From: Pseudomonadales bacterium | GTDB taxonomy: Bacteria; Patescibacteriota; Microgenomatia; UBA1400; PJMF01 | Direction: 5' to 3' | Assembly (NCBI GenBank): GCA_020632235.1 | Contig: JACKFY010000001.1 | Span: forward strand, 159,334 to 223,333 | Length of the DNA stretch: 64,000 nucleotides | Part shown: positions 2,931 through 19,669 of the stretch, one piece after another | Layout: every line of letters starts with the position of its first letter | Numbering within the stretch: the stretch's first letter is position 1 | Translations under genes and position numbers: made by a program | The notes under the pieces: model-generated | What the model was told of the DNA's origin: nothing | Databases searched by the model: none | Seen by the model: the letters and a program-made list of their open reading frames with translations, nothing else

Positions 2931-3701
2931 TTATTTTTGTTTTTCTTGTTTGACTTTTTGAATGCTAAACAACCTACTCGGATCATAAGAATTAGAATCG
3001 ATCCTGTACAATCCCTTTTTCGGATGTTTGACAAAGATTGTTCTTATTGGATTTGCAAAGTTATTCAAGTCTTGAAAATCAGAAACAACAGTTACTTTGT
3101 CTGCGAAAAACTCATTTATTCTATTAAAAATTTCCTCAGTTGTAGCAACTCTTTGAGATTTATATTCACTGTCATTGTATAAACGAATCGAGAACAACGA
3201 AATTGACGTTACTGACAGTGTGATGAAGAAAATAAATAATATGGAACCAATCCAAACAACTTGACTAAAATTTATTAATAGTACAAATGATATAAGCGAA
3301 AACAGTAAGAATAAAAACCCTAAATCAATTGCCGTCATGCTCTTTGGATACGCTGGCCACTGTACTGTAGCTTTGTATTTTTCTGCTTCTTCAATTCCTT
3401 TTTCGAGAATAAGCTTATTAATCTCGTCGTTAATTTGGTTTCGCTTTTTGTTGTACCCAACACTATCCCAAGGAAACAATATAAATGGATTGAGCAATCT
3501 GCTTCTCAAGACAAAAACTCCAAGTATTAATCCAATTGAAATAATAAGTGCGACCAAACTTGATGCCTTATATATTTCTTCATTGCCAGAAAAAAACACT
3601 ACAAAACTTTCATTCAAGGAATATTGAGAAATTGCCACGGCTACGGCAGCAATAAAACCAATATTTTGAAGCAAATCAGCTAAAAATGAGTTTTTGTTCA
3701 T
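2931..3701 (-). CDS. hypothetical membrane protein (about 4 TM helices) embedded in the RM operon
   Basis: 256-aa ORF with four hydrophobic helices. Its stop lies 2 nt from the hsdR start and its start 2 nt from the stop of the upstream gene. No recognisable family. Confidence 0.5.
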   Translation of the reverse strand: MNKNSFLADLLQNIGFIAAVAVAISQYSLNESFVVFFSGNEEIYKASSLVALIISIGLILGVFVLRSRLLNPFILFPWDSVGYNKKRNQINDEINKLILEKGIEEAEKYKATVQWPAYPKSMTAIDLGFLFLLFSLISFVLLINFSQVVWIGSILFIFFITLSVTSISLFSIRLYNDSEYKSQRVATTEEIFNRINEFFADKVTVVSDFQDLNNFANPIRTIFVKHPKKGLYRIDSNSYDPSRLFSIQKVKQEKQK

Positions 3702-3702
3702 A

Positions 3703-4548: not shown

Positions 4549-4549
4549 A

Positions 4550-5710
4550 TTAATTTATAGTTACTTTCTGACTAAAAATATCTTGCATGAGGCCTTTTTT
4601 TAGAGATATTAGAGTGTTTTTTTGTTTAATCTCACTTTCTATTTTAATATCAAGTTTGCAAAGTATATCTGCTATTTTTTGTTGCTCATCTGAGGAAGGT
4701 TTTGGAACGTACAAATTCTTTATATGCTTTAGACTCAGGGTCTTTTGATTTGACCCCACAACCTGCTTAGCAACCTGCTCAGTGGGAATTGGAGACTGTA
4801 AAGCGTAATAGAGATATTTACCATTTATTAATGGAGATATTATTGCTGTGTTTTGTCCTAAACAAAACTGCTTCGTTGTTGCCACATAAGAAAATACACC
4901 AAAGGAACCTACTCTGCTTATGACGATGTCGCCTTGCGCTGGAACATGATTTTTTGTGAATAGGTCATAAACCTTTTTTTCAACTTTGATACAACTAGAC
5001 AGATCTAGGTCACCTTGCTTAATATCAATAACTCTAACCATTGGCAATCCATCACCTGAATACTTTGGTGTTTGATGCAGAGAATCCACGACCTTTGCCA
5101 CTAAACTAAGCATTTTTATTTCCCACTCCTCAGGAATTTCACCCAATTTTGTCTTCTTAAACTTCTTGTGTCCTATTCCTTTGGTCAACAACTCACTCAT
5201 CAAACCTTGCTTGAGCTTCTCAGTTTTTTGAATTATTTGATCAGTTTTCTCAATCGTTTCATCAATTGTAGATAAAATATCGGCAACTTTTGCCTGAATT
5301 TTTAATGATGGATTTAGTATTTTTATTTTGTTTAATGAAGCTTGATTTAACTTTCCCCTGGTTGTTCCAGAAATGTAATTTCTCAGATCTGAGTAATTGA
5401 GATAATTCATTACGAACTGGATATTGGCATTTTTTATTCTCAGAACATGAGCATGGTTATTTACCCAACTCTTACCGTTAATGATAAATGCCGTGTTGGC
5501 TCCACCTGACCAGTCAGCTCCATCTTCGCCAATAAGCAGCAATTCCTCATCAAATATGTAGTCATTAACATAGTCAACAATCCCCGTTGCGCCATAGTAG
5601 GGAATATCACCAGATTTCCTCTTTAACTTAGCAACAGGCACTCTTTTGCTATCTAAGTTTTCAGATATATCGCTTATTGTTGTTGTGGGCCATTTATTTG
5701 TCATATTCAT
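4550..5710 (-). CDS. hsdS: Type I restriction-modification specificity subunit HsdS
   Basis: 386 aa with two target-recognition-domain halves separated by a conserved central helical region (LKQGLMSELLTKG), which is typical HsdS architecture. Confidence 0.85.
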   Translation of the reverse strand: MNMTNKWPTTTISDISENLDSKRVPVAKLKRKSGDIPYYGATGIVDYVNDYIFDEELLLIGEDGADWSGGANTAFIINGKSWVNNHAHVLRIKNANIQFVMNYLNYSDLRNYISGTTRGKLNQASLNKIKILNPSLKIQAKVADILSTIDETIEKTDQIIQKTEKLKQGLMSELLTKGIGHKKFKKTKLGEIPEEWEIKMLSLVAKVVDSLHQTPKYSGDGLPMVRVIDIKQGDLDLSSCIKVEKKVYDLFTKNHVPAQGDIVISRVGSFGVFSYVATTKQFCLGQNTAIISPLINGKYLYYALQSPIPTEQVAKQVVGSNQKTLSLKHIKNLYVPKPSSDEQQKIADILCKLDIKIESEIKQKNTLISLKKGLMQDIFSQKVTIN

Positions 5711-6042
5711 TTCTTAAACAAACCAATTATTGAATCAAATCCGTACTTGATGGGAGCTAGTAATGCCTTTTCTGCTGATATAACTACCAACCTTGTTCTC
5801 CAGGGATAAGCTGCTCCACACTCATGACAGTTCCAAGGAACTTCTTTTTTAGTAAGATCCAAAACACTATCTGAATGGTACTTACCTCGAATTTTTGCTT
5901 GGCAAATCAAACATTTAGTAACTGTTTCACCACCACATTTATCACACCGCTTCTGCCTATGGTTTGGTGAAGAATCGTAGTAGGCGGTAATTTGATTACC
6001 GCACCTGCGACACACTTGCATCGTGTCGTAATAATTACTCAT
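5707..6042 (-). CDS. small zinc-ribbon protein (four CxxC motifs)
   Basis: 111 aa with CRRC...CDKC...CLIC...CHEC. It has 4-nt ATGA-type overlaps with both neighbouring genes, which suggests translational coupling inside the RM operon. Confidence 0.5.
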   Translation of the reverse strand: MSNYYDTMQVCRRCGNQITAYYDSSPNHRQKRCDKCGGETVTKCLICQAKIRGKYHSDSVLDLTKKEVPWNCHECGAAYPWRTRLVVISAEKALLAPIKYGFDSIIGLFKK

Positions 6043-6935
6043 TCTCCTAACTCCTTTCTCTTCTGCGGTACCAATTCCTCACCAGTCCCTATCATATCGG
6101 TGACATCACCGGCATGATCGCTGCCCTTGCCCAAGTAGTTACTCCCAGTTACTACTTTTCTTCCTGTCTCTTGTTCTAATTTCTTTCTGGCATCACCAGC
6201 AATATTACCGCCACGCTTGGCTACATGTTTGTTTTGGGTAAATCCTTGAGGGTGTTCTGATTTAGTAATCTCGGTGGTCGATGCTTCACCAAGCATGGAG
6301 AACAATAATTCTAAATCGCTCATGTGATCGCGCAGATTTTCTCGTTTGAGTCCTTTTACTTTCTTATGGGCAGAAGGAGTAATACCAAAGGCAGCCTTTG
6401 ATATTTCTGCCGTCAAGATCGCATATTCTTTCGATTCTTCAATACCATGCTTTTGCCATTCATCTGTGAGTTCTTCACGAATTGCGATCGAACGCATTCT
6501 TCTTTCGATCCATTCATCAGGATAGCCTTTTGCTTTGTATAAAGCTCTAGCTCTTTTTTGGGCAAGCTCGGGATCTTCAATTTCCTGAATTCGCTCATAG
6601 CCTACTTTTGCCAACCAACGTTTGAAGGGTTCTGCTTTGGGTGAAGGAACCGATTGAATAATACGAAAAATCCCCTCAGTATTGGCGCAGTTTACCTTTT
6701 GCTTACCTCCGGCTGTTTGTATCAAAAGGGGGGTGACAATTTGTCCATACCCTTTTGCCAACTCCTCATCACGCTTTCTCATTTTGCTGAGATAGTCTTT
6801 GGGATTGACGCTATCAGTTAGAGCCACAATGACATCTTCGACTACAAACCACCATTCATTTTTATGGATGGTTTTGCGGATCTCTTTTTTTCTAAAAATA
6901 GCAATTTTAGTCAATTCACTGATTTGTTTATTCAT
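6039..6935 (-). CDS. Bro-N/ORF6N-like (antirepressor/RhuM-like) DNA-binding domain protein
   Basis: The N-terminal segment EWWFVVEDVIVALTD...NPKDY...KRWLAKVGYERIQE matches the Bro-N-type fold found in phage antirepressors. The gene lies between hsdM and hsdS, a position where RhuM/Bro-like genes are known to occur. Confidence 0.5.
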   Translation of the reverse strand: MNKQISELTKIAIFRKKEIRKTIHKNEWWFVVEDVIVALTDSVNPKDYLSKMRKRDEELAKGYGQIVTPLLIQTAGGKQKVNCANTEGIFRIIQSVPSPKAEPFKRWLAKVGYERIQEIEDPELAQKRARALYKAKGYPDEWIERRMRSIAIREELTDEWQKHGIEESKEYAILTAEISKAAFGITPSAHKKVKGLKRENLRDHMSDLELLFSMLGEASTTEITKSEHPQGFTQNKHVAKRGGNIAGDARKKLEQETGRKVVTGSNYLGKGSDHAGDVTDMIGTGEELVPQKRKELGE

Positions 6936-8619
6936 AGCCTAGCTCCTTAATAAAACCTGTAACCTTTTTATCGATTTCGTCTCTTTCGGTTTCCAGCTGC
7001 TTAATTTCACCCCAAACCTGCTTAACATCAATCACTTCCTGCTCATCACTGGAATCGATGTAACGCCTGATGTTGAGATTAAAATCATTTTCTTCGAGTT
7101 CATCAGTATCAACCACGCGAGCGTATTTCTCCACGTTCTCATACTTGTCATAAGACGAAACAATCTTATCTATATCCTTCTTCCTTAGGGTATTTTGGTT
7201 TTTGCCTTCCGCATAGTCACGCTCAGCATCAACAATCAGAACCCTGCCTTTTTTATGTTCAGGCTTGTTCCTATTAAAAATTAAAATAGCTGCCGGGATG
7301 CCGGTACCATAGAACAACTTAGAAGGCAGAGCGATAACCGCTTCCAGGAGATCATTCTTGATGATCTGCTCACGGATCCGACCCTCGCTGCCTCCCCGGA
7401 ATAAAACTCCGTGGGGAAGAACCACGCCCGCCCTACCGTTGGCATTCATAGATTTCAAGATGTGGAGCACGAAAGCGTAATCGGCGTTTTTCTTTGGTGG
7501 TTGATCGTAACCCTCAGTACGACCATACTTATCGCTTTTAAATAGCTCAAATTCCCAGTCTTTGATGGAGTAAGGGGGATTAGCCACTACGATATCGAAT
7601 GTCTGTAGGTTGCCCATATTGGTCAAGAACTGGGGGTTGGCCAGCGTGTCGCCTCTCCTGATATCGGCGCTATCCAATCCATGCAAGAACATGTTGATCT
7701 TGGCGATGGCAAAAGTGCTGATGTTGATTTCCTGGCCATAGAGATAAAGAGTTCTAGCAATTTGCTCACCTGATTTATCCTTGAGATAGTTGTAGGCTTC
7801 AAGCAGGAAACCGCCAGAACCTACTGTAGGGTCATAGATGTGATCTTTTTGGTGAGGTTTAACAATACCAATAATGATTCGCTCAACTTCTCGAGGGGTA
7901 TAAAACTCTCCGCCCTTCTTGCCAGCATCAGCGGCGAACTGCTTGATCAGGTACTCATAAGCATCGCCAAGCAAATCCGAGCTTATGTAATTGCTGCCAA
8001 AGTTGTATTGGGAAAAATGGTTAACCAACCTCTGGAGTGTCTCATTAGGGAAGCGGTCTTTGTTGGCAAAATCCAGATCATCAAAAATCTTGTCCAGCTT
8101 AGGACTATTAACATTAGTAATCTTGTCAAAAACATCATTAAGCTTCTGCCCAATGCCCTCTGAAGTTTCGGCGATCACCTGCCAACTGCAATCTTTAGGT
8201 ACTTGAAAACGGTGATTGTAATCAGCGGCGGCCAGAGTCTTGTCGCCGTACTCACCCATTACACTCTGGTACTCCTCGTCCCAAACATCGCTTATCCGTT
8301 TATAAAACAGTAGTCCAAAGATATATTTCTTATAGTCAGAGCTGTCGATTTTACCTCTTAAGATATCTGCCGACTTCCATAAGAATTGCTCAAGCTGAGC
8401 TAAAGTGAGTTTACTACTCATTTCCTCTGCCAAAAGCTGGATGTCTTGCTTACGATATTTGCGGTCCTGTCTCGGCCCAACTCTAAGAGGAGTGAGTTTG
8501 CCAGCTTTCTCCCAATTTCTCAGGGTATCACGGTGGATTTTGAATAAATCAGCTACTTCCCCGATGGTTAGAAGGTCTGGTGTATCTTCAATAACTTTTT
8601 GAGTGATGCTTTTGCTCAT
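6928..8619 (-). CDS. hsdM: Type I RM N6-adenine DNA methyltransferase HsdM with N-terminal MerR/excisionase-type HTH extension
   Basis: The HsdM N-domain (LEQFLWKSADILRGKID) is present, together with an AdoMet-binding region and the VANPPYSIKDW motif IV. The first ~60 aa (LTIGEVADLFKIHRDTLRNWEKAGKL) form a MerR/Xis-like HTH. Confidence 0.9.
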   Translation of the reverse strand: MSKSITQKVIEDTPDLLTIGEVADLFKIHRDTLRNWEKAGKLTPLRVGPRQDRKYRKQDIQLLAEEMSSKLTLAQLEQFLWKSADILRGKIDSSDYKKYIFGLLFYKRISDVWDEEYQSVMGEYGDKTLAAADYNHRFQVPKDCSWQVIAETSEGIGQKLNDVFDKITNVNSPKLDKIFDDLDFANKDRFPNETLQRLVNHFSQYNFGSNYISSDLLGDAYEYLIKQFAADAGKKGGEFYTPREVERIIIGIVKPHQKDHIYDPTVGSGGFLLEAYNYLKDKSGEQIARTLYLYGQEINISTFAIAKINMFLHGLDSADIRRGDTLANPQFLTNMGNLQTFDIVVANPPYSIKDWEFELFKSDKYGRTEGYDQPPKKNADYAFVLHILKSMNANGRAGVVLPHGVLFRGGSEGRIREQIIKNDLLEAVIALPSKLFYGTGIPAAILIFNRNKPEHKKGRVLIVDAERDYAEGKNQNTLRKKDIDKIVSSYDKYENVEKYARVVDTDELEENDFNLNIRRYIDSSDEQEVIDVKQVWGEIKQLETERDEIDKKVTGFIKELGYE

Positions 8620-8689
8620 GCTCTCAATAATATCAGTATTTTAGAAAATGTCAATAAATATCTTTCATAGGTATTCATAGGTTTGATTG

Positions 8690-8745
8690 AAAAAACCAGT
8701 TGTTCGGAAATTCCGGACAACTGTACGATCTTTGCGTACAGTTGG
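8690..8745 (-). terminator. tandem hairpins followed by a T-tract on the minus strand, between the upstream gene and hsdM
   Basis: There is an imperfect 11-5-11 palindrome CAGTTGTTCGGAAATTCCGGACAACTG and a 10-bp-stem hairpin CAACTGTACG-ATCTTTG-CGTACAGTTG. On the minus strand they are followed by GGTTTTTT. This element could also be an operator for the HTH-HsdM. Confidence 0.4.
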
Positions 8746-9019: not shown

Positions 9020-9922
9020 TTATCTGATAGCGGCTCTACTTACCGGTCCATCCAACTCATTGGAGAAGCTAATCAGCTGACCGCCACTAGTAAAGGCGAT
9101 GGAGATGCTTGGTGTTTCTGTGGATTCGTAGACCTTAATACAGGGAACCCCATTGCCGTTGTAATACAAGCCCTCAACGTCTTTATTTAAGTCCTCGCTA
9201 CAGGTTTCAAGCGGTGGGTTATGCTGGACAGTTTGGGCTTCGCCTCTCCAAATGAAGAAATAATTTACCCTACCGTTACCACCATCTTTCCTACCAGTTT
9301 CCAATGCCAGCTTACTCAGATCAATGTCGCCAATAGCTGAGGAGTGTTTGGCAATAAAGCTTCTGGCAAGTCGTTCGACTTCCTCCTGAGAGTAATTTGC
9401 CGAGTAATCATATTCTTTGCCTTCACTAAACCAACGGCTGCCATCGATTTTGTATCCCCAAGTCCCGGGAGTTTCTTCTACCTGCAGGACATGATTAGTT
9501 TCAGGATCCACAATAAAGTAAGTTAAACCAACTATATAAGTCTCACCTTTAGCGGGAATAAGCTTATCTTCTTCCAAGCTATAAAAAGCGTTACTACACT
9601 CATATTCCACTTCCACAGTTGGCATTTCCAGGAAATCACGAACAGAGGCAATAGCTTTCTCTCGCTCTTCCACCGGCCGCGCCGTCAGAGAACATAGCTT
9701 TTCTCTCAATTCCTTGGTGGCTTGAGCAGTATGGTCCCGATATTTAGGGTCGGTACTGAGCTTTTCGGTGATCTCTTTGATCTCCTGAACCCTTTGGTTC
9801 TCAGTTTGTTGAGTTCTATAAGACTGGTATTTTGAACGCGTCACATTAAGCCCAAAGTAAATCACCACCAGGAGCAAAATAACCAGAGCTAATCGTTGAA
9901 AATTTTTCATTGTCATATTCAT
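9020..9922 (-). CDS. hypothetical protein with N-terminal signal-anchor (secreted or membrane-anchored)
   Basis: 300-aa ORF with an N-terminal hydrophobic segment LALVILLLVVIYFGL. No recognisable family. Confidence 0.5.
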   Translation of the reverse strand: MNMTMKNFQRLALVILLLVVIYFGLNVTRSKYQSYRTQQTENQRVQEIKEITEKLSTDPKYRDHTAQATKELREKLCSLTARPVEEREKAIASVRDFLEMPTVEVEYECSNAFYSLEEDKLIPAKGETYIVGLTYFIVDPETNHVLQVEETPGTWGYKIDGSRWFSEGKEYDYSANYSQEEVERLARSFIAKHSSAIGDIDLSKLALETGRKDGGNGRVNYFFIWRGEAQTVQHNPPLETCSEDLNKDVEGLYYNGNGVPCIKVYESTETPSISIAFTSGGQLISFSNELDGPVSRAAIR

Positions 9923-9989
9923 AATTATCCTCCTTTCCTCAAGGTTTGCCGATGTTAGCTTCGTTAGCCATCGGTTGTCAAATCTTCTC

Positions 9990-10055
9990 TCGGTTTCACT
10001 AAAATCACCCTTTTCACTTATTAGTGAAAGTACCCGATTTAGTGAAAATCACCAG
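9990..10055. promoter_or_regulatory. cluster of direct and inverted repeats (TTTCACT / AGTGAAA, AAAATCACC) in a divergent intergenic region
   Basis: The sequence TTTCACTAAAATCACCC-TTTTCACTTATTAGTGAAAG-...-TTAGTGAAAATCACC includes the perfect palindrome TTCACTTATTAGTGAA. It is a candidate operator, or origin-associated site, upstream of the 10156 ORF. Confidence 0.3.
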
Positions 10056-10155
10056 AGGCAATTTACACAAATAAACAGTAACTATCACAAAGTTTATTGA
10101 GATAAACATACGGTCCCGGCTAGGCTAGACATAGTTAATTTTAATCTGAATTTCT

Positions 10156-10410
10156 ATGTCACAAGCAAAACCTGCCACTTATCTCACCAGCGACCTTGCT
10201 CTCGCTACCACCATCTCCCTTAACTTTCCTATTGCAGATATTGATCGAGCCAATCCGCGCAAAGCGGTTTTTGTGTTTCAGCGGTCCCCGGAATTGGAAG
10301 CCTTAGTTGATTCTTACTTCACCCATCAGCTCAAAGTTTCTCCACAGATATTTTTCAACCAGTTACGTGATGTCAAAGCCAGGCTCTATGCCGAAAAACG
10401 ACCATGGTAA
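10156..10410 (+). CDS. hypothetical small protein
   Basis: 84-aa ORF downstream of the repeat-containing intergenic region. No family recognised. Confidence 0.3.
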   Translation: MSQAKPATYLTSDLALATTISLNFPIADIDRANPRKAVFVFQRSPELEALVDSYFTHQLKVSPQIFFNQLRDVKARLYAEKRPW

Positions 10411-10533
10411 GCCAACAACTATTACTCGAGCTGAAGAAAATCATCGAAGAAGACTATGGAATCAAACTAACTTTGGCCGAAGTCATGGAAGTGGCAACCA
10501 CCCTGGTCCAGTTTGCTGAAGTGGCCATGAAGA

Positions 10534-11070
10534 TTGAAGCCAAACCAACAGCTCTTAAGAAGCTTTGTTCAACAAATGAAAATGAAGATGTCAAAACAAC
10601 AACCCACAGACAATCTGTACCTCCAAATCTGGAGAAACCCTATTTTCAAGAATCTTCTTTTGGCGCAAGTAACAGCCGACCAATGGCATACCTTTACTGC
10701 TCTGGCAGTCTTCATGAACAAAAAGGGCGAATGTTACCCGTCTCAGAATAAACTCCAGATACTTGGTTTAAATAGTGTGGCTAGCGTGAGTAGAAGAATT
10801 GCCTCTTTAGAGAAGGCACGTTTTGAAGGCGAACCTTTAATCAAAGTCTTTCGAGATAAAAAGATGAAACGTAAAGGCAAATTCCTCTTTGCCAGCAATG
10901 GCTATCAGCTTAATCAAAACATCATTACTATCTTCGCTCCGCATGACACCACCATCGCATATAGGCGACAACAAATGGAAGCACTCAAAGAACTTAAGGC
11001 TAAAACCTTGGATTCATTAAGCATGGCTGCGTCACGGAAAGACGATAAACAAACTAGAAGGAGTTTTTAA
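10534..11070 (+). CDS. helix-turn-helix protein resembling plasmid/phage replication-initiator HTH (HTH_36-like)
   Basis: The segment CYPSQNKLQILGLNSVASVSRRIASLEKARF is typical of Rep-like winged-helix/HTH proteins. An iteron-like array follows immediately downstream. Confidence 0.4.
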   Translation: MKPNQQLLRSFVQQMKMKMSKQQPTDNLYLQIWRNPIFKNLLLAQVTADQWHTFTALAVFMNKKGECYPSQNKLQILGLNSVASVSRRIASLEKARFEGEPLIKVFRDKKMKRKGKFLFASNGYQLNQNIITIFAPHDTTIAYRRQQMEALKELKAKTLDSLSMAASRKDDKQTRRSF

Positions 11071-11184
11071 CAAAAAATTTAACGAAAACGGCGCCGTTTA
11101 TGAAAGACAAATCAATAGTAAAATCAACAGAACAACTTATAAGGAAGCTTGGTCAATTCCCGGTCAGAAATTGGTCAACTTTTT

Positions 11185-11440
11185 TGGGTGGGCAGAAGGT
11201 GGGCAAAATGCGGGCGGATTTAGAGGATTTTCAGGCTAAACAGGGTGTACAAAAGGTGGACAGAAATAGGACGGAAATACTTCACCAACGCTTCACTGAA
11301 ACTTCACCGGATTTTAGAGCTCTTAGCCTGAAAACCCTTCGGCAGCGCTTCGGCGCAGCTTCGGTGGTTTTGGAGAAGATTAGCCAAGAAAAATGTCGGC
11401 AACGTAACGGCAAACTGTCGGTGGTTTCGAACACATTTCT
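11185..11440. repeat. iteron-like array of short direct repeats with about 11-bp periodicity
   Basis: GGTGGGCA x2 plus TGCGGGCG, GGTGTACA/GGTGGACA, CTTCACC x3, CTTCGGC x3 and TGTCGGC x2, each set spaced by about 11 nt. The track ORF 11100-11543 covering this region is probably not coding. Confidence 0.5.
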
Positions 11441-11539
11441 CCTGCTTCCGTGTATAGCCCAATATATGCGGAATGTCCTGATTCAATTTGATATTCCCTC
11501 GAGTTACCTATATGTTGTTGTGTTGAAAAAGCCAGTCTC

Positions 11540-12797
11540 ATGAAAAGCGTTATATTCTGCCGAGTCTCCAGCAAAGAACAGGAAGAAACGGGCTACTCGC
11601 TCCCGGCGCAGGAGAAGTTCCTCAGAGAATATGGTGATAAACAAGGCTTGGAAGTTAAAAAAGTCTTTGCTATTTCCGAGTCAGCAGCAGGCAAAAGCCA
11701 ACGCAAGGTCTTTGAGGAAATGATCACCTATGTTAGGAAACAGAATATCTGTGCCATCATTGTCGAAACCACCGACCGTTTGACCAGAAACTTCTCCGAC
11801 GTGCCAACTATCGACCAATGGATTACCGAAACGAAACCACCAGATTCACTTAGCCAAAGAAGCCTGTGTCCTGCACAACTCCTCCTGTTCCACGAATGGT
11901 TTATGGCGGGTTAAAGTTGCTACTGCCGAGTATTACGTCCGCCTCCTTTCCGAGAATGTGAAGAAGGGACAAAAGAAAAGCTGGCACAAGGCTGGCTACC
12001 GACCAGACCACCGCTTGGCTACAAACTGTCGGCGAAACCGGCCACAAAATCCACATTATTGATGAAGGCGCTTCTAGGCTGGTGATCAAAATGTTTGAAC
12101 TCTCTGCCTCCGGCGATTATTCCATCAAGAAACTGGCCAACACCATGTATAAGGAAGGCATGAGATCGCCTCAGGGAAATAAGCTGGCGGTCAGTCGAAC
12201 ACACTCCCTACTGCGCGATCCCTTCTATATGGGTAAGATTAGATGGAACGATGAGATTTATGAAGGCAAACAGGAACCATTAATCAGTAAAGAAGTATTC
12301 GATAAAGTTCAGAAGTTACTCAAAAGCAAAACCACACCCACTTATATGAAACACAGTTATTTATTCAAAGGTTTAATTCGCTGCGCTACCTGCAAAGGGC
12401 TGATCACCTGGGAGTTTCATAGTGGCCATCGTTACAGCCACTGCAACCACTACAACGAATGTGATCAGGAAACCCGCACGAGGCAGTTTCTAGAAGAATG
12501 GACAAGTTATACGACGACAAACTTGATGAAAAAATCACCCAGGAGTTTTATAACCGCAAGTTTAAGCAGTACTCAAAGGAAAAAGACGAGCTGACTGAAA
12601 CCATCAAGAGGCACTCCACCGCCAGCACCGGTTACCTGAATCTGGGCATCAACCTCTATGAACTCTCTCAGCGGGCCAAAGAAATCTACTTAACCGCCAA
12701 AAGAAGGAGATGCTAGACGAACAACGCGCACTTATAAGGCTGGTCTTTAAGAAACTCATCTTAGATGAAGGAAAACTCAGCTGGGAATACTCCTGAG
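11540..12797 (+). pseudogene. large serine recombinase (resolvase/integrase family) disrupted by frameshifts
   Basis: The resolvase catalytic N-domain (VIFCRVSSKEQ...) is in ORF 11540-11914. The SENVKKGQKK...GYRPD segment is readable only in another frame at 11915-12080. The recombinase-domain plus zinc-ribbon piece (CATCKG...HCNHYNEC) is in 12082-12594, and the coiled-coil tail is in 12498-12716, continuing in yet another frame to about 12797. Confidence 0.7.
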
Positions 12798-12941
12798 CCT
12801 TTAAGATCCTGTCTGAGGCAGTAAGTCAGACAAATTGTTCTAAAGTGGAAAATTTGGAGGGTTTGAAAAAGAAACTTTCGAACATCGAGAAAGAGCGATG
12901 TTTCGGGACAAAGGACTCTTTGTTGCCCTCTCATGCCATCT

Positions 12942-13013
12942 GGCCCCCGGGAGGATTCGAACCTCCAACCTACCGGTTAACAGCCGGGCGCTCTGCCATT
13001 GAGCTACAGGGGA
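12942..13013 (-). tRNA. tRNA-Asn (anticodon GTT), no encoded CCA, predicted 1:72 T-C mismatch
   Basis: The reverse complement reads TCCCCTG-TA-GCTC-AATGGCA-GAGC-G-CCCGG-CTGTTAA-CCGGT-AGGTT-GGAGG-TTCGAAT-CCTCC-CGGGGGC-C. This gives a cloverleaf with the GTT anticodon and a canonical T-loop, and the 3' end faces the recombinase pseudogene. Confidence 0.6.
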
Positions 13014-13029
13014 TTGTTAAGTATCTTTA

Positions 13030-13090
13030 TCAGCCGGGCGCCCTGCTTGCGCAGGCAGGTCTGCACAGTGAGCCACAGGGTGTCACCTTG
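13030..13090. repeat. degenerate partial duplicate of the tRNA-Asn 5' half
   Basis: CAGCCGGGCGCCCTGC...CTGCACAGTGAGCCACAGGGTG parallels CAGCCGGGCGCTCTGCCATTGAGCTACAGGGG within the tRNA. Confidence 0.35.
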
Positions 13091-13192
13091 TTTTCCCACA
13101 GGTGAAAGTATACCCCATCACCCTTATTTTTTCAGCATGATGTTGTTGTCATCGGCCTTGACATGACGCATGAGTGCTTTCACACTAGAGGT

Positions 13193-13492
13193 ATGTATGC
13201 TACTAGCCTCGCTCTTTCTCGACAAGCTGAAGTGCTTGGTGTTTTGGCAAACCAAACCCGCCTGCACATGCTCTACCTACTTGGTCAGCGCGCACGCACG
13301 GTGCAAGAGTTGGTTGTCCAAACAGGTAAGTCGCAATCAAGCACTAGTCAACACCTAAAAATTCTTCGAGAGACGGGCGTTGTAGAGGTTTCTGCCATGG
13401 GTCGCTACCGGGTGTACTCACTGTCCCACCAAGGCTATGCTGATATGCAAGAGTTATTGTTTGTGGTGCTGCGCCGGCAGGGAGAGCGCTAG
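13193..13492 (+). CDS. ArsR/SmtB family transcriptional regulator
   Basis: A winged HTH spans LANQTRLHMLYLL...RTVQELVVQTGKSQSSTSQHLKILRETGVV. The start was chosen at the internal Met (MYATS); the ORF opens at 13163. Confidence 0.7.
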   Translation: MYATSLALSRQAEVLGVLANQTRLHMLYLLGQRARTVQELVVQTGKSQSSTSQHLKILRETGVVEVSAMGRYRVYSLSHQGYADMQELLFVVLRRQGER

Positions 13493-14511
13493 TAGCCAAT
13501 AGTTTTTTTCAAAAATGGCGTTTTACTGATCATAAACGACAAGAGAAAACTGGCTATAACACTCAAAACGATATGCATGAGGAGTGTGGGCGTGCTTACT
13601 TGAAACGATTCAGATAGCTTGAACCAATCCCACACCATGTCTTGGACAAATGGAGAAATAAGATACACACCAAACGTCAATCCAGCCAGCTGAGAGAGCA
13701 TACTTTGTGTGCCGTGAGAGAGAGACTGAAAGTAGGGTTCTTTTTTTTGAAAGAGAAGAAAAATGCTGATAGCTTGCATCGCAACAATGGGGTTGGTGTA
13801 GTCATAAAAGTAGGTGGGGCTCCAGTGGTTGGTAAAAAAACGGTAGCTGGTGAGCAAAAGTATCAAGAGTGAGGCGCTCAAAAATGTTGCCACAAGCCAC
13901 GTTTTTTTGACTAGATGCTGTGTGTACTCTAGGGCTTTGGGTGCGGTGTAGTAAAAGAGAAAAGGTATCCACAACACATAGAGAAAGTCACGATGCCACC
14001 AGGTGAGAAAGGGGGCAAAAAAAAGAGCTACCAGCCCAATGGTGTTTTTGGGTGAAAGTTGTGAAAATATACTACGCAGCAGAGGGGTGACAACGTACAG
14101 CCCAGCTATAATGAACAAAAAATAGAGGTGATACTGTGGTGCTTGGTAAAGCAGTGTGTGCTTAAGAAATGAGGGCGAGAGCATGCCTACCACGTTACTT
14201 TTATTAACCCAAAACAGATAAAACAGCCACCAGAACACAAGAGGAATAGCCACACGAGCAACTCTCTTTTTATAAAAAACACTCGCGGGCTCTTGTGCGT
14301 TAGGCTTGAGTAGTAGCGCTCCGCTCGCCATGATAAACACAGGCACGGCCCATCTGCTCAGGGCGTGGAGTATGTTGGTTGTCCACCAGTCCAGAGAGGG
14401 AATGCTGGTATAGAGATAGAGTAAACCAGCACTCGAGTGAATAGCCACTACCGCTACAATAGCTAGGATTTTGAGTACATCAAGGTAGATAGTGCGCTGC
14501 ATACAATACAA
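13489..14511 (-). CDS. acyltransferase family 3 integral membrane protein
   Basis: 340 aa with about 10 TM helices and an N-terminal YLDVLKILAIVAVVAIH motif typical of acyltransferase_3 (OatA-like) enzymes. Confidence 0.7.
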   Translation of the reverse strand: MYCMQRTIYLDVLKILAIVAVVAIHSSAGLLYLYTSIPSLDWWTTNILHALSRWAVPVFIMASGALLLKPNAQEPASVFYKKRVARVAIPLVFWWLFYLFWVNKSNVVGMLSPSFLKHTLLYQAPQYHLYFLFIIAGLYVVTPLLRSIFSQLSPKNTIGLVALFFAPFLTWWHRDFLYVLWIPFLFYYTAPKALEYTQHLVKKTWLVATFLSASLLILLLTSYRFFTNHWSPTYFYDYTNPIVAMQAISIFLLFQKKEPYFQSLSHGTQSMLSQLAGLTFGVYLISPFVQDMVWDWFKLSESFQVSTPTLLMHIVLSVIASFLLSFMISKTPFLKKTIGY

Positions 14512-14573
14512 AAGCCCCTCACTTTTTCACTTGGATTGTACCAGGAGCCAAAGTGAGGGATTATCTGTTTTTA

Positions 14574-15320
14574 TTAAAGATATTGATCGATCATCGGTTT
14601 GATCTGCTCGACGGGAAGTGCGCCAGAGATGAGTTCTTGAGCACCATCAGCAGTCATGATAAAGGTAGCGGGAGTACCGGTGACCCCGGCTGCCGTGCCT
14701 TCACTCAGCTGTGTTTTGACCAGATCTGCCATCTCACCACTATCAAGACACTCGGTGAATGCTGCTTCGTTTACACCTGCCTCTGTGGCGGCCTGGGTGA
14801 TTGACTCAGGTTCTAACTTACCACCCATTTCCTCATTGATGGCAAAGATAGCATCAGCATAGCTCCAAAACGCTTCTTCTCCACCTAATTTGGCTACACA
14901 CTCGCTGCCTTCAGCTGCTTTTTGGGCATCATCATGAAATGAGAGTGGGTAGTGCCTGTACACCAGGGCTATATCATCGCCATAGTCGGACAAGAGCTGC
15001 TTGGTTGTCGGGTGGAATCGCTGACAGTAGGGACACTCAAAGTCTGAGTACTCTACCAAGACAACAGGTGCATCGGGCCTACCAATGATGTGATCTTCAC
15101 CCGTGACTGGTGGTACAGCGGCTAGCTGCTCGGCGGTAGGGCCGGTCTCTGTGGGTGCTTGTGCTGTTGGGGTTGTGCCCAGGGCAGTGCCACCCAGAGA
15201 TCCTTCCTTGAGCATCTTGTTTTCCGTCCACATCGAGCCCATGAAAAACCCGAGGGCAAACGCAACGACTGCGATGATAACCATGAGTGGCGTGTTGCTT
15301 TGGTGTGTATCTGCTGGCAT
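14574..15320 (-). CDS. DsbA/BdbD-like thiol:disulfide oxidoreductase (thioredoxin fold, CPYC)
   Basis: An N-terminal TM anchor is followed by a FECPYCQRFHP active site and a DsbA-like helical insertion. Confidence 0.75.
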   Translation of the reverse strand: MPADTHQSNTPLMVIIAVVAFALGFFMGSMWTENKMLKEGSLGGTALGTTPTAQAPTETGPTAEQLAAVPPVTGEDHIIGRPDAPVVLVEYSDFECPYCQRFHPTTKQLLSDYGDDIALVYRHYPLSFHDDAQKAAEGSECVAKLGGEEAFWSYADAIFAINEEMGGKLEPESITQAATEAGVNEAAFTECLDSGEMADLVKTQLSEGTAAGVTGTPATFIMTADGAQELISGALPVEQIKPMIDQYL

Positions 15321-15409
15321 AGGTGCTTTCTATGTACGGTGTATTTATTACGTGTTGTATCTGCGAGTGATCAGTATAGAGGGCAATAGAGATTCTGACA
15401 AGAGAGTGT

Positions 15410-17011
15410 TTATTCTCTTGCTTCCCGTATTTCTACAGTATTGTTATCCTCAGACATCATTTCTTGATCGAAGGCGGCATCTTGTCTCATTGAGTCTTTT
15501 TGGGTCTCGATTACAGATGGTGGCGCTTGCATCACTTCTTGGGGTGCTACGACGGGTGCATCAATTTTTTGCTCTGTTACTGCCGGAGTAGCGGTAGGAC
15601 AGAATGCGCCTAACACATTGCACGTCATGCCGGACCGAGCCAAAAAGGCAGGATCTGCCACCCCAATAGCAGGAGAGGTGGGAAGCAGACGAAAATCAAA
15701 GTTTGCCATACCCACATAGAGTGGGTCTGCCTCTACTTTGTTGGGGAAGTCGCAAATTTCATGTCGACCACAGCCTGTATTTTGTCCTTCATTTGCCCAG
15801 ACTAGGTTGTGGTGGATGTCATCGTTGGCCATATTTTCTGGCACCCCTGCATATGCCCCACCGATCCCAAACCCATAGGTGCCATCGGTGTTTTTTCTAG
15901 TGTGAGTGAAGATGTTGTTTACTAGTGTGACCGATGGATTATGGTCTCCTTCTGAGTAAATGTTGATTCCCACTACTCTATTATGAAAAAAGGTGTTGTT
16001 AATTGCAGTAATTTGGGCTTGTCCGTCTGCAAACACTCCATTCAGTTCATTTTCGTACACAGAAGATTGAGTAATAGTGAGTGAGCTTTGATTTCCCGCT
16101 CGCACCCCACTTAATCCGTTGGAATACGCAGAAGATTGGCCAATAGTGAGTGAGCTTTGATCTACTAATGCAATACCGTATTGCTCATTATCATATACAG
16201 AAGATCTTGCAACTGTCGTACTGCTAGATCCATGTAATACTAATCCTTGGCGCCCATTTTCATATAGTGATGAGTCCAATATACTTACATTTGAGTTGTC
16301 ATGTACGTATACGCCATTATCACTACAGTTAGTTATAACAATGTTGCTTATTCTGCCTCTAGTATCATTGCCAAAACTAAAACAACTCGCCGTACTATTA
16401 TAAATACCCATATTTGAAATAATCAGGCCTCCTACTTCCGTTACCCGAAAGCCATCCACCCTACATCCCTGTGGTACCTCGGTTTTATTAAAGTCTATGC
16501 CCACATCACCCTCACCTTTGAGGTACACAGCCTTATCGCCAATATTGATAGAGAAGTTGTCGCATGTTTGACCCATCGCTTTGTAATACCCATTTTTGAT
16601 ATTGATGGTAGTTAGCCCCGTAGTAGGGGCGCTGTCTATTGCCTGTCTGATACCAGCAAACCCTACAAAATCACACCCAGGTGATTGTTCTGGACAAACA
16701 GTTAAATCTGGATTCCCAGTCCCCGGAGCAGTCTTTGCTTGTTGCCTAACATCTTGGCTAGAGCCCATCAAGAGCATGCTGGTTGCCATACCCACGGCCA
16801 GTATGAGAAATAGAAGTGAAGCAAATGCTCGCTTGGCGACTTGCTTATATGAGAGTGCTTTTGTGGTACTGGGACTGTGTTTTGAGCCGGGTGTTTCTGC
16901 TGCCGGCGGGTGTTTGTTACCTGAAACACCAGAAAAGGTGTTTTTGATGGTGGAGGGAGTAAAATTATGCATCAAGCATTTACTATGCACAAAGAGAAAG
17001 CCTTTTGTCAA
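15410..17011 (-). CDS. secreted right-handed parallel beta-helix repeat protein
   Basis: A signal-anchor is followed by repeated xxNGxxGVxxxxSSxxTIxxSSVYxN units characteristic of pectate-lyase-like beta-helix repeats. Confidence 0.6.
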   Translation of the reverse strand: MTKGFLFVHSKCLMHNFTPSTIKNTFSGVSGNKHPPAAETPGSKHSPSTTKALSYKQVAKRAFASLLFLILAVGMATSMLLMGSSQDVRQQAKTAPGTGNPDLTVCPEQSPGCDFVGFAGIRQAIDSAPTTGLTTINIKNGYYKAMGQTCDNFSINIGDKAVYLKGEGDVGIDFNKTEVPQGCRVDGFRVTEVGGLIISNMGIYNSTASCFSFGNDTRGRISNIVITNCSDNGVYVHDNSNVSILDSSLYENGRQGLVLHGSSSTTVARSSVYDNEQYGIALVDQSSLTIGQSSAYSNGLSGVRAGNQSSLTITQSSVYENELNGVFADGQAQITAINNTFFHNRVVGINIYSEGDHNPSVTLVNNIFTHTRKNTDGTYGFGIGGAYAGVPENMANDDIHHNLVWANEGQNTGCGRHEICDFPNKVEADPLYVGMANFDFRLLPTSPAIGVADPAFLARSGMTCNVLGAFCPTATPAVTEQKIDAPVVAPQEVMQAPPSVIETQKDSMRQDAAFDQEMMSEDNNTVEIREARE

Positions 17012-17071
17012 GCTTGAAAGAAAGCTGCGCAGTTCACTAGAAGGTAGGGTTTTTTACAGAGGTTATGTTTA

Positions 17072-17806
17072 GTGCTATACTTTTATTGTATGACAGATAA
17101 AACACTTTCTACACCAAGTAGTACGACCAGTGAGCCTCAGATGTATGTGGCTGAAGGGCAAAAGAAACGAAGTGTAAAAGATACCGTTGCTCGGATTGTG
17201 AAAGCTGCCAAGATAGGCGTGACGTTGGTACTACTAGCAATTTTTGTGTTTGGTGCCTACTCTGTGTGGCGGCTTGTCTCTCCGTCTTCTGGCACTGTGG
17301 CGGTTGATACTTCCCGCGAGAGTGTGGTGAGCAAGATCCAGAGCTTGCAGCGGGTCGAGACTACGCAATTTACGATAGAAAAAATTATCTCGGCTGGAAC
17401 AGAATCAAACAATAGGTTTGACGAGTTGTTGTTTGAAGACAGACTGTTGCTGGTGGCACACGGAGTAGTAACGGCGGGCGTGGACGTCTCTTCACTACAC
17501 AAAGATGACGTGACTGTTACTGGTAGCACACTCACACTTCGCCTGCCACCCACCAAGATCTTGACCACTACCCTTGATAACAACAAAACAACAGTGTATG
17601 ACCGTCAGCAGGGCTTTTTGATCCAGGCAGACAAAGACTTAGAAAGTACTGCTAGACAGGCAGCCCAAGAAGAAATAAGCAAAACCGCGTGTGAGAGGGA
17701 TATCCTGGTACAAGCTGCCACCAATGCCCAGACGATGTTTGAGCAGATGTTTTTGCTGGCAGGCTTTGAGAGGGTGGAGGTGCTGGTAGCAGCGGGGAGT
17801 TGCTAG
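17072..17806 (+). CDS. DUF4230-like membrane-anchored protein
   Basis: An N-terminal TM is followed by the pattern GVVTAGVDVS...LTLRLPPTKIL...D, which matches my recollection of DUF4230. Not verified. Confidence 0.45.
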   Translation: MLYFYCMTDKTLSTPSSTTSEPQMYVAEGQKKRSVKDTVARIVKAAKIGVTLVLLAIFVFGAYSVWRLVSPSSGTVAVDTSRESVVSKIQSLQRVETTQFTIEKIISAGTESNNRFDELLFEDRLLLVAHGVVTAGVDVSSLHKDDVTVTGSTLTLRLPPTKILTTTLDNNKTTVYDRQQGFLIQADKDLESTARQAAQEEISKTACERDILVQAATNAQTMFEQMFLLAGFERVEVLVAAGSC

Positions 17807-17835
17807 GCTCATTTTTTTCAAGTTGAAAAATTTCT

Positions 17836-18498
17836 ATGACTGTTCGAACATTCTGCACAAAGTGGGGCGCGGTAGTTTCAGATGAGTGCCTAGAGTTGTG
17901 TAGCATTGCCGATGCGTATATGCGCAGAAGCAAAGACCCCTTGCACATGCTAGAACACACTCATTCATTACTGACCAATCTAGACTGGCTCTACACTCGG
18001 CGCCCAGAGTTACGAGAGCGTGTGAATCATACCGTGTTGTTGTTGGCTATCTCTTGGCATGATGTGTGGCGTTCGACAAAAAAGTTTGGCTCTCTTATCG
18101 ATATCATAGTAGCATTTGTGTGGGATGGGCGTGGTTCGTCTCGGTTGTTTCAAAGGTACGCTCGTCAGTATCAGCTGGACGAAGAGGTGCTTGCGCAGGT
18201 GTCATACGCTATTGGCAAACATGACTCGTTTCACTTGAGGGGTAGAAAAACACTTGAGTCACGCATCCTCAAAGACATTGACGAGATGGAGGTATTTGAT
18301 GTGCGACGTTTTGTAGCGCTCAAACAACACGTGATGCCCGAATCGCTGGGGTTTGGTGTGCATGCTGGCATGCGGTTTTTCTTGCGCATGAAACTGCGCC
18401 GCTCAAAAAACAGTGCCTACTTTGCAGAAACAAGAGAGTACATCGTGGCTGAACAGACGCGCTTTCTGGAGTATCTTAGCCAAACGGCTGTTTCATAA
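17836..18498 (+). CDS. hypothetical protein, possible HD-domain phosphohydrolase
   Basis: The spacing HxxH (LEHTHSLL) ... HD (ISWHDVWR) ... D resembles HD-domain metal ligands. This is weak evidence. Confidence 0.35.
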   Translation: MTVRTFCTKWGAVVSDECLELCSIADAYMRRSKDPLHMLEHTHSLLTNLDWLYTRRPELRERVNHTVLLLAISWHDVWRSTKKFGSLIDIIVAFVWDGRGSSRLFQRYARQYQLDEEVLAQVSYAIGKHDSFHLRGRKTLESRILKDIDEMEVFDVRRFVALKQHVMPESLGFGVHAGMRFFLRMKLRRSKNSAYFAETREYIVAEQTRFLEYLSQTAVS

Positions 18499-19624
18499 GC
18501 GCGTTGTAGTATGCCAGGTTGTGGATGCTCAGTAGCCTTCCACCCAGGCTGTCTTTAATTTTAAAAAGGTGATGAAGATAGTACCTTGGGTAGTGAGCAG
18601 CACGTGAGGTGATTATTTTGTCCAACACAGAGGTGTCGTGCTTGTACTTGGCATTGGTGATGCGAACTACTCCGTCAGAGCTGTAACATACGCCGTGGCG
18701 AGCATTCCTGGTTGGCAGCACACAGTCAAACAGGTCGTAGCCGTACTGCATACAGCGCAGCATGTCATCTGGGGTGCCCACACCCATAGCATAGCGAGGC
18801 GCATCTGCTGGCAGTAGCTTGGCCACAAACTGCATTACTTCGTCAGGAAAAAACTCTTTTTCAGTGATGGCCCATCCGCCGAATCCATACCCGTCAAACC
18901 CGATCTGGATGAGTGCCTCGGCGCAGTGCTTGCGCAGGGTTTTGTCAATCCCGCCCTGTACGACGCAAAATAGAAGAGGGCGCACCGTGCTTTCCCAGCC
19001 CAAGCCTCGCTTTGCCAGGTGTTGCTCAAACCGCTGTTTACAGCGCTCTGCCCAGGCTATGGTGCGCTCCACTGATGCTACTAGCTCTGCCTCATCTTGG
19101 TAGTGTCTGCAATCATCGAGTACCACCATGATGTCACTACCCAGGTTCCACTGAATATCAATGGCGTTTTCAGGGGTGAGGATGAGCGGCGCGCCGTCTC
19201 TGGGGTTGGTAAAGTGTGCGCCGTCATTATCAACAGAACCTTTGAGATTGGCAGAGTTGTGAATGAGAGAAAATACCTGAAACCCGCCGCTGTCAGTCAG
19301 CACTGGCCTGTTCCACTGCATGAATTGATGGATGCCACCCATCTGCCTGATGTACTCATCACCTGGGTAGCTGCGCAGATGAAAGGTGTTGGTGAGCAAG
19401 AATTGCAACTCATTTTGTTCTCTCAGATGCTCTGCAGAGAGCGTTTCTCCTTGGGTGAGAGTGCCAGACAGATGGGTTATTTCTTCTGGCGAGAGGTGCT
19501 TGATCACCCCTCTGGTCGCATCAGGCCCAAAGGCGGGAGTCATAATCTGTCCGTGTGGAGTGGTGATCACTCCTCGTCGTGGTGTTTCTCCTGGTGGTGT
19601 AAATAACTGAAAGTGTTTTGACAT
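18476..19624 (-). CDS. tgt: queuine tRNA-ribosyltransferase (tRNA-guanine transglycosylase)
   Basis: It has TPAFMPVGT-like motifs (TPAFGPDATRG, VLTDSGGFQVF, DDC...) and a zinc-binding C-terminus. The start was taken at MSKHF. Confidence 0.85.
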   Translation of the reverse strand: MSKHFQLFTPPGETPRRGVITTPHGQIMTPAFGPDATRGVIKHLSPEEITHLSGTLTQGETLSAEHLREQNELQFLLTNTFHLRSYPGDEYIRQMGGIHQFMQWNRPVLTDSGGFQVFSLIHNSANLKGSVDNDGAHFTNPRDGAPLILTPENAIDIQWNLGSDIMVVLDDCRHYQDEAELVASVERTIAWAERCKQRFEQHLAKRGLGWESTVRPLLFCVVQGGIDKTLRKHCAEALIQIGFDGYGFGGWAITEKEFFPDEVMQFVAKLLPADAPRYAMGVGTPDDMLRCMQYGYDLFDCVLPTRNARHGVCYSSDGVVRITNAKYKHDTSVLDKIITSRAAHYPRYYLHHLFKIKDSLGGRLLSIHNLAYYNALMKQPFG

Positions 19625-19669
19625 GAGGCGTTTTGCTATCGTATCATGCAAATGAAGGAAGTAACGTTT

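Follow-up and report, generated by a model that had tools for sequence, protein, structure and literature searches.

The region between positions 9923 and 13100 of a stretch of 64,000 nucleotides (nt) from contig JACKFY010000001.1 (assembly GCA_020632235.1, positions 159,334 to 223,333 of the forward strand; hereafter the window, to which all coordinates without a locus name refer) carries a gene for a predicted DNA-binding protein, an array of short direct repeats and a broken gene for a large serine recombinase (LSR) that faces the 3' end of a tRNA-Asn gene, and it raises the question of what kind of mobile element settled there. A preliminary description had taken the region for the remnant of an integrated plasmid or of an element resembling an integrative and conjugative element (ICE). 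The presence of an integrated mobile element next to tRNA-Asn is supported, since a displaced tail of the recombinase gene lies at its far end (attL) and the corresponding site is empty in a close relative. The plasmid- or ICE-like character is not, as no replication, relaxase, type IV secretion system (T4SS) or phage genes were found among the genes of the element. The region is very probably the recombination module and the right end of an integrated, LSR-driven island of about 14.9 kb, belonging to a family widespread in Patescibacteria (candidate phyla radiation, CPR), in which the attachment site of the element (attP) lies inside the reading frame of the recombinase.

The LSR pseudogene occupies positions 11540-12943 (+). 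Indeed, a Pfam Resolvase domain (E=4e-15) is encoded in the open reading frame (ORF) 11540-11914, a Pfam Recombinase domain (E=9e-15) and a weak Zn_ribbon_recom match are encoded in the ORF 12082-12594, and a tblastn search with an intact homologue of 537 amino acids (aa), P0001, covers positions 11540-12949 throughout, in three frames. The reconstructed protein matches 1,547 LSRs at E<=1e-10, the best of them with E=2e-250, 80% identity and 100% coverage; by homology, all fragments are thus those of one gene of one LSR family and not of unrelated genes. The domain order is that of a resolvase catalytic domain (Ser10), a recombinase domain and a four-cysteine zinc ribbon with an embedded coiled coil. 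In a 32-sequence alignment of LSR relatives, R8 and S10 of the catalytic motif VIFCRVSSKEQ, which is present here, and the zinc ribbon cysteines C284, C287, C304 and C310 are invariant. A segment previously read as containing GYRPD came from the wrong frame, the homologous reading being KLAQGWLPTRPPLGYK. Judged by profile scores, the protein belongs to the LSR superfamily and to no named subfamily: in NCBIfam the best model is CcrB, the score of 101 bits falling short of its cutoff of 900, so the protein is no Ccr recombinase, and XisF reaches 92 bits against a cutoff of 375. A scan of species-representative genomes for relatives of this LSR gave 328 confirmed matches, from which 80 loci, almost all labelled as Patescibacteria lineages, were retained; these and two of three intact relatives make up the 82 classifiable loci considered below, and the best 120 database proteins were surveyed for their C-terminal tails.

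The integration target is tRNA-Asn(GTT), the lone tRNA gene of the window (12942-13013, -; ARAGORN and Rfam), which lacks A72 and G73. It lies antisense to the LSR gene, its 3' end pointing at it, as had been described; the gap of 145 nt formerly placed between the two does not exist, because homology to intact recombinases reaches up to the tRNA itself. This arrangement is general in the family. The LSR 3' end runs antisense into a tRNA in 62 of the 82 loci: a complete opposite-strand tRNA follows the LSR end in 48 (41 Asn, 6 Gln and 1 odd) and the 3' half of a tRNA-Asn followed by a group I intron in 14, so that the arrangement of the window is shared by 55 Asn loci. The reading frame goes on, or other sequence follows, in 14 of the remaining loci, and the contig ends in 6. 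The LSR gene ends with ...R-P-I-W-L, coded by CGTCCCATCTGGCTC, and the end motif in the relatives is CC(C/T)ATCTGGCTC (P-I-W-L). Since LSRs at least 93% identical to one another adjoin tRNA-Asn genes whose bodies differ right after TGGCTCCCC, the tRNA is host DNA and the junction, TGGCTC, lies at its 3' tip.

The group I introns were confirmed by Rfam (RF00028, 55-77 bits) in all six loci tested, all of them on the minus strand: L008 (2248-2440), L014 (11621-11817), L026 (11624-11924), L030 (11622-11829), L042 (11609-11828) and L044 (11615-11831). ARAGORN misses these tRNA-Asn genes because the intron interrupts the anticodon loop; the exon junction inferred for them, CUGU|UAA, corresponds to position 35/36, and an intron at this position has already been published in a 2026 paper on tRNA introns of Patescibacteria (PMC13011429). 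A subclade of six loci (L045, L047, L048, L050, L054 and L059), with LSRs 53-56% identical, adjoins tRNA-Gln(CTG/TTG) instead, with the junction TGGCTG, which suggests, as far as these sequences go, a retargeting to a second tRNA. Just upstream of the 5' end of the tRNA-Asn gene of the window, positions 13027-13046 form an 18/20 near-copy of its anticodon-arm segment (12977-12996); this near-copy, also present in the relative with the empty site, may be what is left of an earlier tRNA copy or exon.

What the element loses at this junction is found at its other end. Uninterrupted LSR copies run about 30 codons past W-L, with the pattern W-D/N-D-F-R-T..W..E..YPE......LL; such tails occur at 5 genome loci and in about 10 of the best 120 database proteins, most of the remaining proteins ending in residues antisense to a tRNA. 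In 13 genome loci, and also in 12 metagenome contigs, the same tail is displaced: it stands in frame after GCTC, in the genome loci 7-15 kb upstream of the LSR. The host DNA before the displaced tail is unrelated between copies, is AT-rich in 12/12 metagenome contigs and is followed by GCTC. Substitution rates in the tail over codon positions 1/2/3 (0.18/0.14/0.375) are coding-like. Because uninterrupted copies continue for about 30 codons and integrated copies carry those codons at their far end, attP is placed within the LSR reading frame; insertion at the tRNA-Asn tip therefore swaps the C-terminal tail for a few tRNA-antisense codons. GCTC, the antisense of G71-A72-G73-C74 of tRNA-Asn, is the sole sequence common to the attP-like, attB (empty host site), attL and attR sites (25 attL and about 60 attR junctions). 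The preliminary description had proposed a direct repeat of the tRNA-Asn 3' end as the attachment site, and no second copy of this end was found in the window with three overlapping probes of 24-25 nt at up to 3 mismatches. No long tRNA repeat exists because the shared core is only 4 nt, so that such a test is ill-suited to a serine recombinase.

As reconstructed, the attP sites form imperfect inverted repeats (for example CGTCCCATC-TGGCTCGCCC-GATGGGACG), the dyad score of which is highest for the axis T|C in GCTC (sum 154 vs 91-113 elsewhere); the TC of GCTC would accordingly be read as the crossover dinucleotide, on the symmetry of these sites. The right arm of attP has the consensus G c n c g a TGGgAcGATTTtcGAAC; apart from 4-5 additional nt, it is similar to C c c g G g n a GGAtTCGAACC, the consensus of the tRNA arm of attB, and the right half of attP thus appears to mimic the acceptor and T-arm of the tRNA with 4-5 extra base pairs. 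In LSR systems, the outer motif of the attP half-sites lies 4-5 bp further from the centre than that of the attB half-sites. The attB host arm opposite the tRNA is not conserved and, by eye, often resembles a tRNA terminator hairpin. A circular excised form would carry the attP junction CCCATCTGGCTCGAGAAATGG. In one Woesebacteria contig (L012), an attL-type tail (1087-1179), an uninterrupted LSR with its tail at an attP-like junction (11567-11671) and an LSR C-terminal remnant with tail (17740-17826) occur together, which indicates that these elements pile up in tandem.

The left boundary was expected beyond the window, and this is where it lies. An independent contig (L001) matches window positions 1-8738 at 99.99%, reaches 1,942 nt further left and ends exactly at C|GAGAAATGG... 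(also written C|GAGAAATGGTAT...), which codes for EKWYEFGKIDWVSELEYPEWTVKEVGRFLQY*; this tail is 100% identical at the aa level to that of L012 over 30 residues. With the displaced tail at this distance from the window, the island measures 14.9 kb or so (about -1942 to 12944), and the restriction-modification (RM) operon and the 300-aa protein, which had been suspected to belong to the same element, indeed lie between attL and attR. The element has a lower GC content than its flank. An empty tRNA-Asn site, for which a check of relatives had been suggested, was found in L088 (GCA_020429115.1), which is 99.98% identical to the window over 12944-23442 and diverges exactly at the core. Its attB, TGGCTCCCCCGGGAGG, comprises an intact tRNA-Asn end with TGGCTCCCCC, beyond which lie 112 nt without relation to the element. 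On this point the refuting condition named in the preliminary description thus came out in favour of the element; the attL of the window genome would accordingly read as this 112-nt arm, ...CGCAAGTCGTTCTGAGTG-GCTC-GAGAAATGG.... Independent assemblies tend to break at the element junctions or close to them. L001 stops exactly at the attL core and L087 inside the tRNA, breaks are noted at window positions 8738 and 12985, and the contigs of L004, L011, L070 and L083 end within the LSR/tRNA junction. Assembly breaks at junctions fit strain-level presence/absence variation.

Upstream of the LSR, the elements of this family share a recombination module composed of a DUF5659 protein, a small ORF, a winged-helix protein and an array of repeats phased at 10-11 nt, followed by the LSR itself. 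The order of the module in the window is that of L004, L005 and L012, with 88-96% aa identity to L012, and the closest intact copies of the element are L004 and L005. Matches to the module genes were obtained by tblastn in 59 (DUF5659), 47 (small ORF), 19 (helix-turn-helix (HTH) gene) and 10 (array ORF) related loci. The left edge of the module (10062-10155, +) is a promoter- or operator-like segment of about 95 nt with a 16-nt palindrome, GTTTATTGAGATAAAC (10092-10107): seven aligned elements are unrelated upstream of about position 10062 and almost invariant from there to the DUF5659 start codon. The first gene encodes the DUF5659 protein (10156-10410, +; 84 aa; Pfam DUF5659 E=1.9e-8), the substitution pattern of which is of the coding type (0.15/0.07/0.38). 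Its AlphaFold2 (AF2) model, with a predicted local distance difference test (pLDDT) score of 89.9, is a small alpha/beta domain; no significant structure match was found in PDB, BFVD gave only uncharacterised phage proteins, and the literature searched held no mention of it. The small ORF (10404-10751, +) has 115 aa here, overlaps the HTH gene and measures 51 aa in L004 and L005; its first 48 or so residues are widely conserved, residues 1-48 being those found in the 47 loci.

The HTH gene had been delimited at 10534-11070 and called Rep-like. A DNA-binding HTH protein is indeed predicted, and its start is most likely the ATG at 10576, because the homologues measure 161-165 aa; the gene would thus occupy 10576-11070 (+) and encode 164 aa. 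The Rep-like label did not hold: the HTH_36 match (23.1 bits) is below the Pfam cutoff of 25 bits and points to a generic winged helix. The protein matches phrog_12720, "DNA binding protein" (E=4.8e-17), and its 66 homologues, mostly of about 160 aa, all occur in these elements, none being named Rep. Its AF2 model has a pLDDT of 68, and Foldseek against PDB gave a best E of 0.14, the top matches being generic winged helices of the MarR, RTP, CodY and TubR types.

Between this gene and the LSR lies a helically phased repeat array of six modules (11130-11440; Tandem Repeats Finder (TRF) period 11). The repeats previously called iteron-like are real, the lag-11 autocorrelation of the array (z=7.9) being the highest of the 64-kb window; a role as an origin is not supported, as nothing ties them to replication and an ORF stays open through the array in relatives. 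Each module consists of three copies of a short motif spaced by 11 nt, with spacers of about 22 nt between modules, and the motifs are GGTCA, GGGCA, GGTGxAC, CTTCAC, CTTCGG and xxTCGG. Entire modules have been gained or lost among relatives, and about 30 of 79 related loci, distant ones included, show lag-10 or lag-11 periodicity with z>3 at the equivalent position. The ORF through the array (11100-11543, +; 147 aa) overlaps the LSR start codon by ATGA. In 10/10 relatives it is open, measuring 354-513 nt and always a multiple of 3, and the other two frames hold 7-12 stops. As a protein gene it was rejected, since it matches no family and its substitutions are flat over the codon positions (0.255/0.232/0.195, compared with 0.15/0.07/0.38, 0.12/0.08/0.34 and 0.05/0.02/0.31 in controls); because the pattern is flat although the ORF is kept, the repeats are taken to act at the DNA level, in a frame kept open without amino-acid constraint. 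A candidate pairing of the array with the LSR gene, through an inverted repeat (11411-11430 / 11763-11782, 19/20 complementary) over the codons for VETTDRL, was also rejected: synonymous changes break it in 14/14 relatives, and it is therefore a chance match.

The last 100 nt or so before the LSR start (11441-11539, +) are conserved, with long invariant runs and an overall divergence of about 13% in a 10-element alignment, and contain a sigma-70-like TTGATA-17-TATGTT (11488-11516) and the hairpin or palindrome CCGYRTATA-N6-TATATRCGG. The promoter scan matched 11488-11516, in a region where the number of such matches is not above the shuffled expectation. The array would thus be read as an upstream binding array for the DNA-binding protein of the module: the winged-helix protein, or else the DUF5659 protein, would bind the phased repeats and thereby control the LSR promoter or the direction of recombination. 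Short direct repeats one helical turn apart beside a promoter are known from the 11-bp iterons of plasmid R1 parC/ParR and from the lambda Xis and P2 Cox sites. The present array differs from these in that each triplet has its own motif and an ORF is open through it, and no ParR-, Xis- or Cox-like protein was identified.

These features bear directly on the interpretation as an integrated plasmid or ICE remnant, with the HTH protein as replication initiator and the array as an iteron origin. That reading draws on the genuine direct-repeat array right downstream of a gene for a DNA-binding protein, on a short invariant AT-rich stretch (11066-11090) preceding the array, and on the fact that the weakly matched HTH_36 family includes some phage and plasmid proteins. 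However, besides the sub-cutoff HTH score, no Rep family was matched in Pfam, NCBIfam, PHROGs or a PDB sequence search, and 164 aa with a single winged helix and weak, generic fold matches do not suit the Rep_3/RepA type, which needs two winged helices. Instead of iterons of 17-22 bp, the array has triplets of differing motifs of 5-7 nt, phased at 11 nt; the AT-rich stretch is only about 25 nt long, and the array adjoins the LSR promoter region within an ORF that is kept open. Finally, neither the 14.9 kb of the island nor the Pfam-annotated genes of related elements include a helicase, primase, relaxase, coupling protein or T4SS. A plasmid or ICE origin is therefore improbable.

A decayed prophage or phage satellite with a serine integrase is still less probable. 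The LSR falls in phrog_95, "integrase", the DUF5659 and HTH proteins have distant phage relatives, and Bro-N domains, one of which is encoded in the island, are common in phages; but genes for capsid, terminase, tail, portal or lysis proteins were found neither here nor in complete related elements of 7-11 kb, and a scan of 2.9 million viral contigs (IMG/VR) returned only 5 relatives, all at 43% identity or less. With the phage LSRs (phiC31, Bxb1, A118/LI, TP901-1) the family has in common the domain order, short att sites, a tiny core and an attP that is an imperfect inverted repeat. The sequence similarity is only distant (E=5e-5 for the catalytic domain of TP901-1), the target here is a tRNA 3' tip and not a protein-coding gene, phage genes are lacking, and attP lies inside the integrase frame with about 30 C-terminal residues swapped.

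The island is doubly immobilised, its LSR being riddled with deletions and its attR core lacking 2 nt, in agreement with the immobilisation formerly attributed to integrase decay. Nucleotide alignment to five intact LSR relatives revealed ten small deletions of 1-2 nt each (at about 11831, 11887, 11903, 11970, 12022, 12698, 12864, 12889, 12906 and 12944/5), nine of them inside the gene and the tenth in the attR core; a 160-nt deletion at 12476, directly after the zinc ribbon, which removes P0001 residues 319-368 (about 53 residues); and a nonsense codon, CGA>TGA, at 12794-12796. No insertions were found in this alignment. The intact reading frame of a functional serine integrase is thus missing in the window copy, and the recombinase had rightly been called a pseudogene on account of its three frames. 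The damaged attR core (12940-12949) reads CTGG--CCCCC, as compared with CTGGCTCCCCC and GTGGCTCCCCC at intact attR and attB, and the whole junction CCATCTGG--CCCCCGGGAGG; all intact attR sites and the empty attB have the sequence found in L088, where the window has TGG--CCCCC. The lost 2 nt are TC or CT, inside the 4-nt core, matching the predicted crossover dinucleotide. With a U1-C72 non-pair, the tRNA-Asn of the window scores 60.8 bits in Rfam, and the otherwise identical tRNA of L088, with U1-A72 and G73, scores 68.8 bits; the tRNA is possibly damaged, to judge from these models. The core loss could be the scar of a cleavage, the result of ordinary slippage or an error of assembly; the pseudogene has about one small deletion per 140 nt.

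That the frameshifts, and perhaps the 2-nt core deletion too, are assembly or sequencing errors in an intact LSR gene is hardly credible: several of the 1-nt deletions do lie in A-runs, and look-ups of the window proteins found no independent contig for cross-checking positions 10370-12984, but homopolymer errors account neither for the 160-nt deletion nor for the CGA>TGA change, the neighbouring ORFs (DUF5659, HTH and array) and every large gene of this chromosomal stretch (including ORFs of 1,167, 1,228 and 1,313 aa) are open, and three other assemblies match the window at 99.98-100% over about 31 kb outside the uncovered part. Because neighbouring genes are open and the window agrees with these assemblies, the lesions are read as real.

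Some observations weigh against the reading of the region as one end of an LSR-driven island with attP in the recombinase frame. The attL of this genome is seen only to the last core base, where L001 ends, so that the host arm on its far side is not covered, and an exact 25-mer of the arm predicted from L088 had no match in JGI metagenomes or in the gathered contigs. No excised circle or free attP was seen, the uninterrupted LSR copies all being in chromosomal contigs, apparently within tandem arrays; a role of the tail in activity and the identity of the array-binding protein are predictions. The pseudogene lesions and the 2-nt core deletion rest on a single assembly, and a heavily decayed LSR makes an odd pairing with a 99.98%-identical strain whose attB is untouched. 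This pairing could possibly be an old presence/absence polymorphism homogenised by recombination, or reflect the uptake of an already dead island.

A more far-reaching proposal joins these elements, and it is put forward only tentatively, being rather doubtful as a whole. The undescribed, widespread Patescibacteria family with attP in the LSR coding sequence would make the full-length enzyme only from the excised element and a tail-swapped enzyme from the integrated one, which would amount to a state-dependent control of integration and excision; in the window, the 2-nt loss would be a TC cleavage scar that disabled attR and damaged the tRNA-Asn gene.

Among other known systems, the family resembles in lifestyle the SCCmec-type cassettes (Ccr recombinases, 3' end of rlmH/orfX), which are likewise LSR-driven cargo islands without replication or transfer genes, are inserted at the 3' end of a housekeeping gene and form tandem or composite arrays. 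The present family differs from them by a single recombinase instead of a ccrAB pair, a tRNA target, Patescibacteria hosts and an LSR gene that is split on integration. An attP inside the integrase gene, a tRNA target and a partitioned integrase ORF are known from the SSV1-type integrases of archaeal fuselloviruses. Those are tyrosine recombinases with a long shared tRNA segment and a mid-gene cut, whereas here a serine recombinase is cut before its last 30 or so codons with a 4-nt core. Islands of tyrosine integrases, tycheposons included, are likewise cargo or defence islands beside a tRNA gene; here the direct repeat of the tRNA 3' end is absent, and the recombinase class and the conserved module are others. 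A few tycheposons likewise combine an LSR with a tRNA site, an LSR being present in 27 of 937 (10.1101/2020.12.28.424599).

No description of a serine-recombinase element at tRNA-Asn of Patescibacteria was found in the full-text literature, the coverage of which is incomplete, so that this absence is no proof. To our knowledge, few mobile elements have been described for Patescibacteria. As the family is common (the 328 matches), carries defence cargo and includes nearly identical LSRs in different candidate phyla, it is probably one of the main channels through which these reduced genomes exchange genes. An LSR with short sites whose target is the near-universal 3' tip and T-arm of tRNA-Asn offers a candidate genetic tool to organisms currently without any, and the exchange of its own C-terminus by an integrase upon insertion would, if true, set the direction of recombination in a new way. 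For the window itself the result is modest: the element now behaves as a fixed defence island, beside a possibly damaged tRNA-Asn.

The cargo of the island consists, from attL, of the displaced tail, a TspO gene, a 204-aa ORF, a YgjP-like gene, hsdR, two genes with no assigned function, hsdS, a DUF2321 gene, a Bro-N gene, hsdM and the gene for the 300-aa protein, followed by the recombination module. The first four of these and attL (about -1942) lie left of the window, in L001. The type I RM system is complete according to PADLOC. It is encoded on the minus strand by the restriction subunit gene hsdR (1-2986, running 7 nt past the window start; 997 aa; PADLOC REase_I E=2e-134), the specificity subunit gene hsdS (4550-5710; Pfam Methylase_S E=2e-40; PADLOC Specificity_I E=9e-60) and the methyltransferase gene hsdM (6928-8619; Pfam N6_Mtase E=3e-108 and HsdM_N; PADLOC MTase_I E=8e-149). 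Between hsdR and hsdS, a low-GC segment (2931-4548, -; 0.33-0.37) encodes the two proteins without a Pfam family, of 256 aa and 281 aa, the latter matching phrog_25239 (E=1.5e-44). Between hsdS and hsdM are a DUF2321 zinc-ribbon protein (5707-6042, -; Pfam E=1.4e-22) and a Bro-N protein (6039-6935, -; Pfam Bro-N E=1.9e-13), the PADLOC defence candidate PDC-S13 (E=2.8e-116). The 300-aa protein (9020-9922, -) has an N-terminal hydrophobic segment and no informative family; tblastn matches to it at 30-79% identity occur in 22 related loci, where it lies upstream of the recombinase module and is encoded on the other strand, and this recurrence makes it a semi-conserved gene of the element rather than free cargo. 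In related elements the cargo includes a DNA methylase, HEPN-domain proteins, Mrr, Schlafen/AlbA, a glycosyltransferase and a BlaR/BlaI-like pair.

Some minor observations concern neighbouring or related genes. The N-terminus of hsdM encodes a MerR_1/HTH_17 (excisionase-like) domain (residues 16-66, window 6928-7130), and the related element L035 encodes a separate HTH_17/MerR protein of 136 aa (8059-8469). A LOOT RNA (Rfam RF03000, about 78 bits) is predicted upstream of the recombination module in L014 (6896-7006, -) and L030 (8226-8336, -), with none in the window. Furthermore, to the right of the island, a low-GC segment of the window (about 0.36) holds a complete type V-A CRISPR-Cas locus (23477-31752), comprising Cas12a (23477-27418; 1313 aa; Pfam REC1, RuvC_1 and NUC), Cas4 (27874-28467), Cas1 (28409-29407) and a CRISPR array (about 29988-31752) with the 36-nt repeat GTTTATTCAAAGTAGTCGATTTCTACTTTTGTAGAT.

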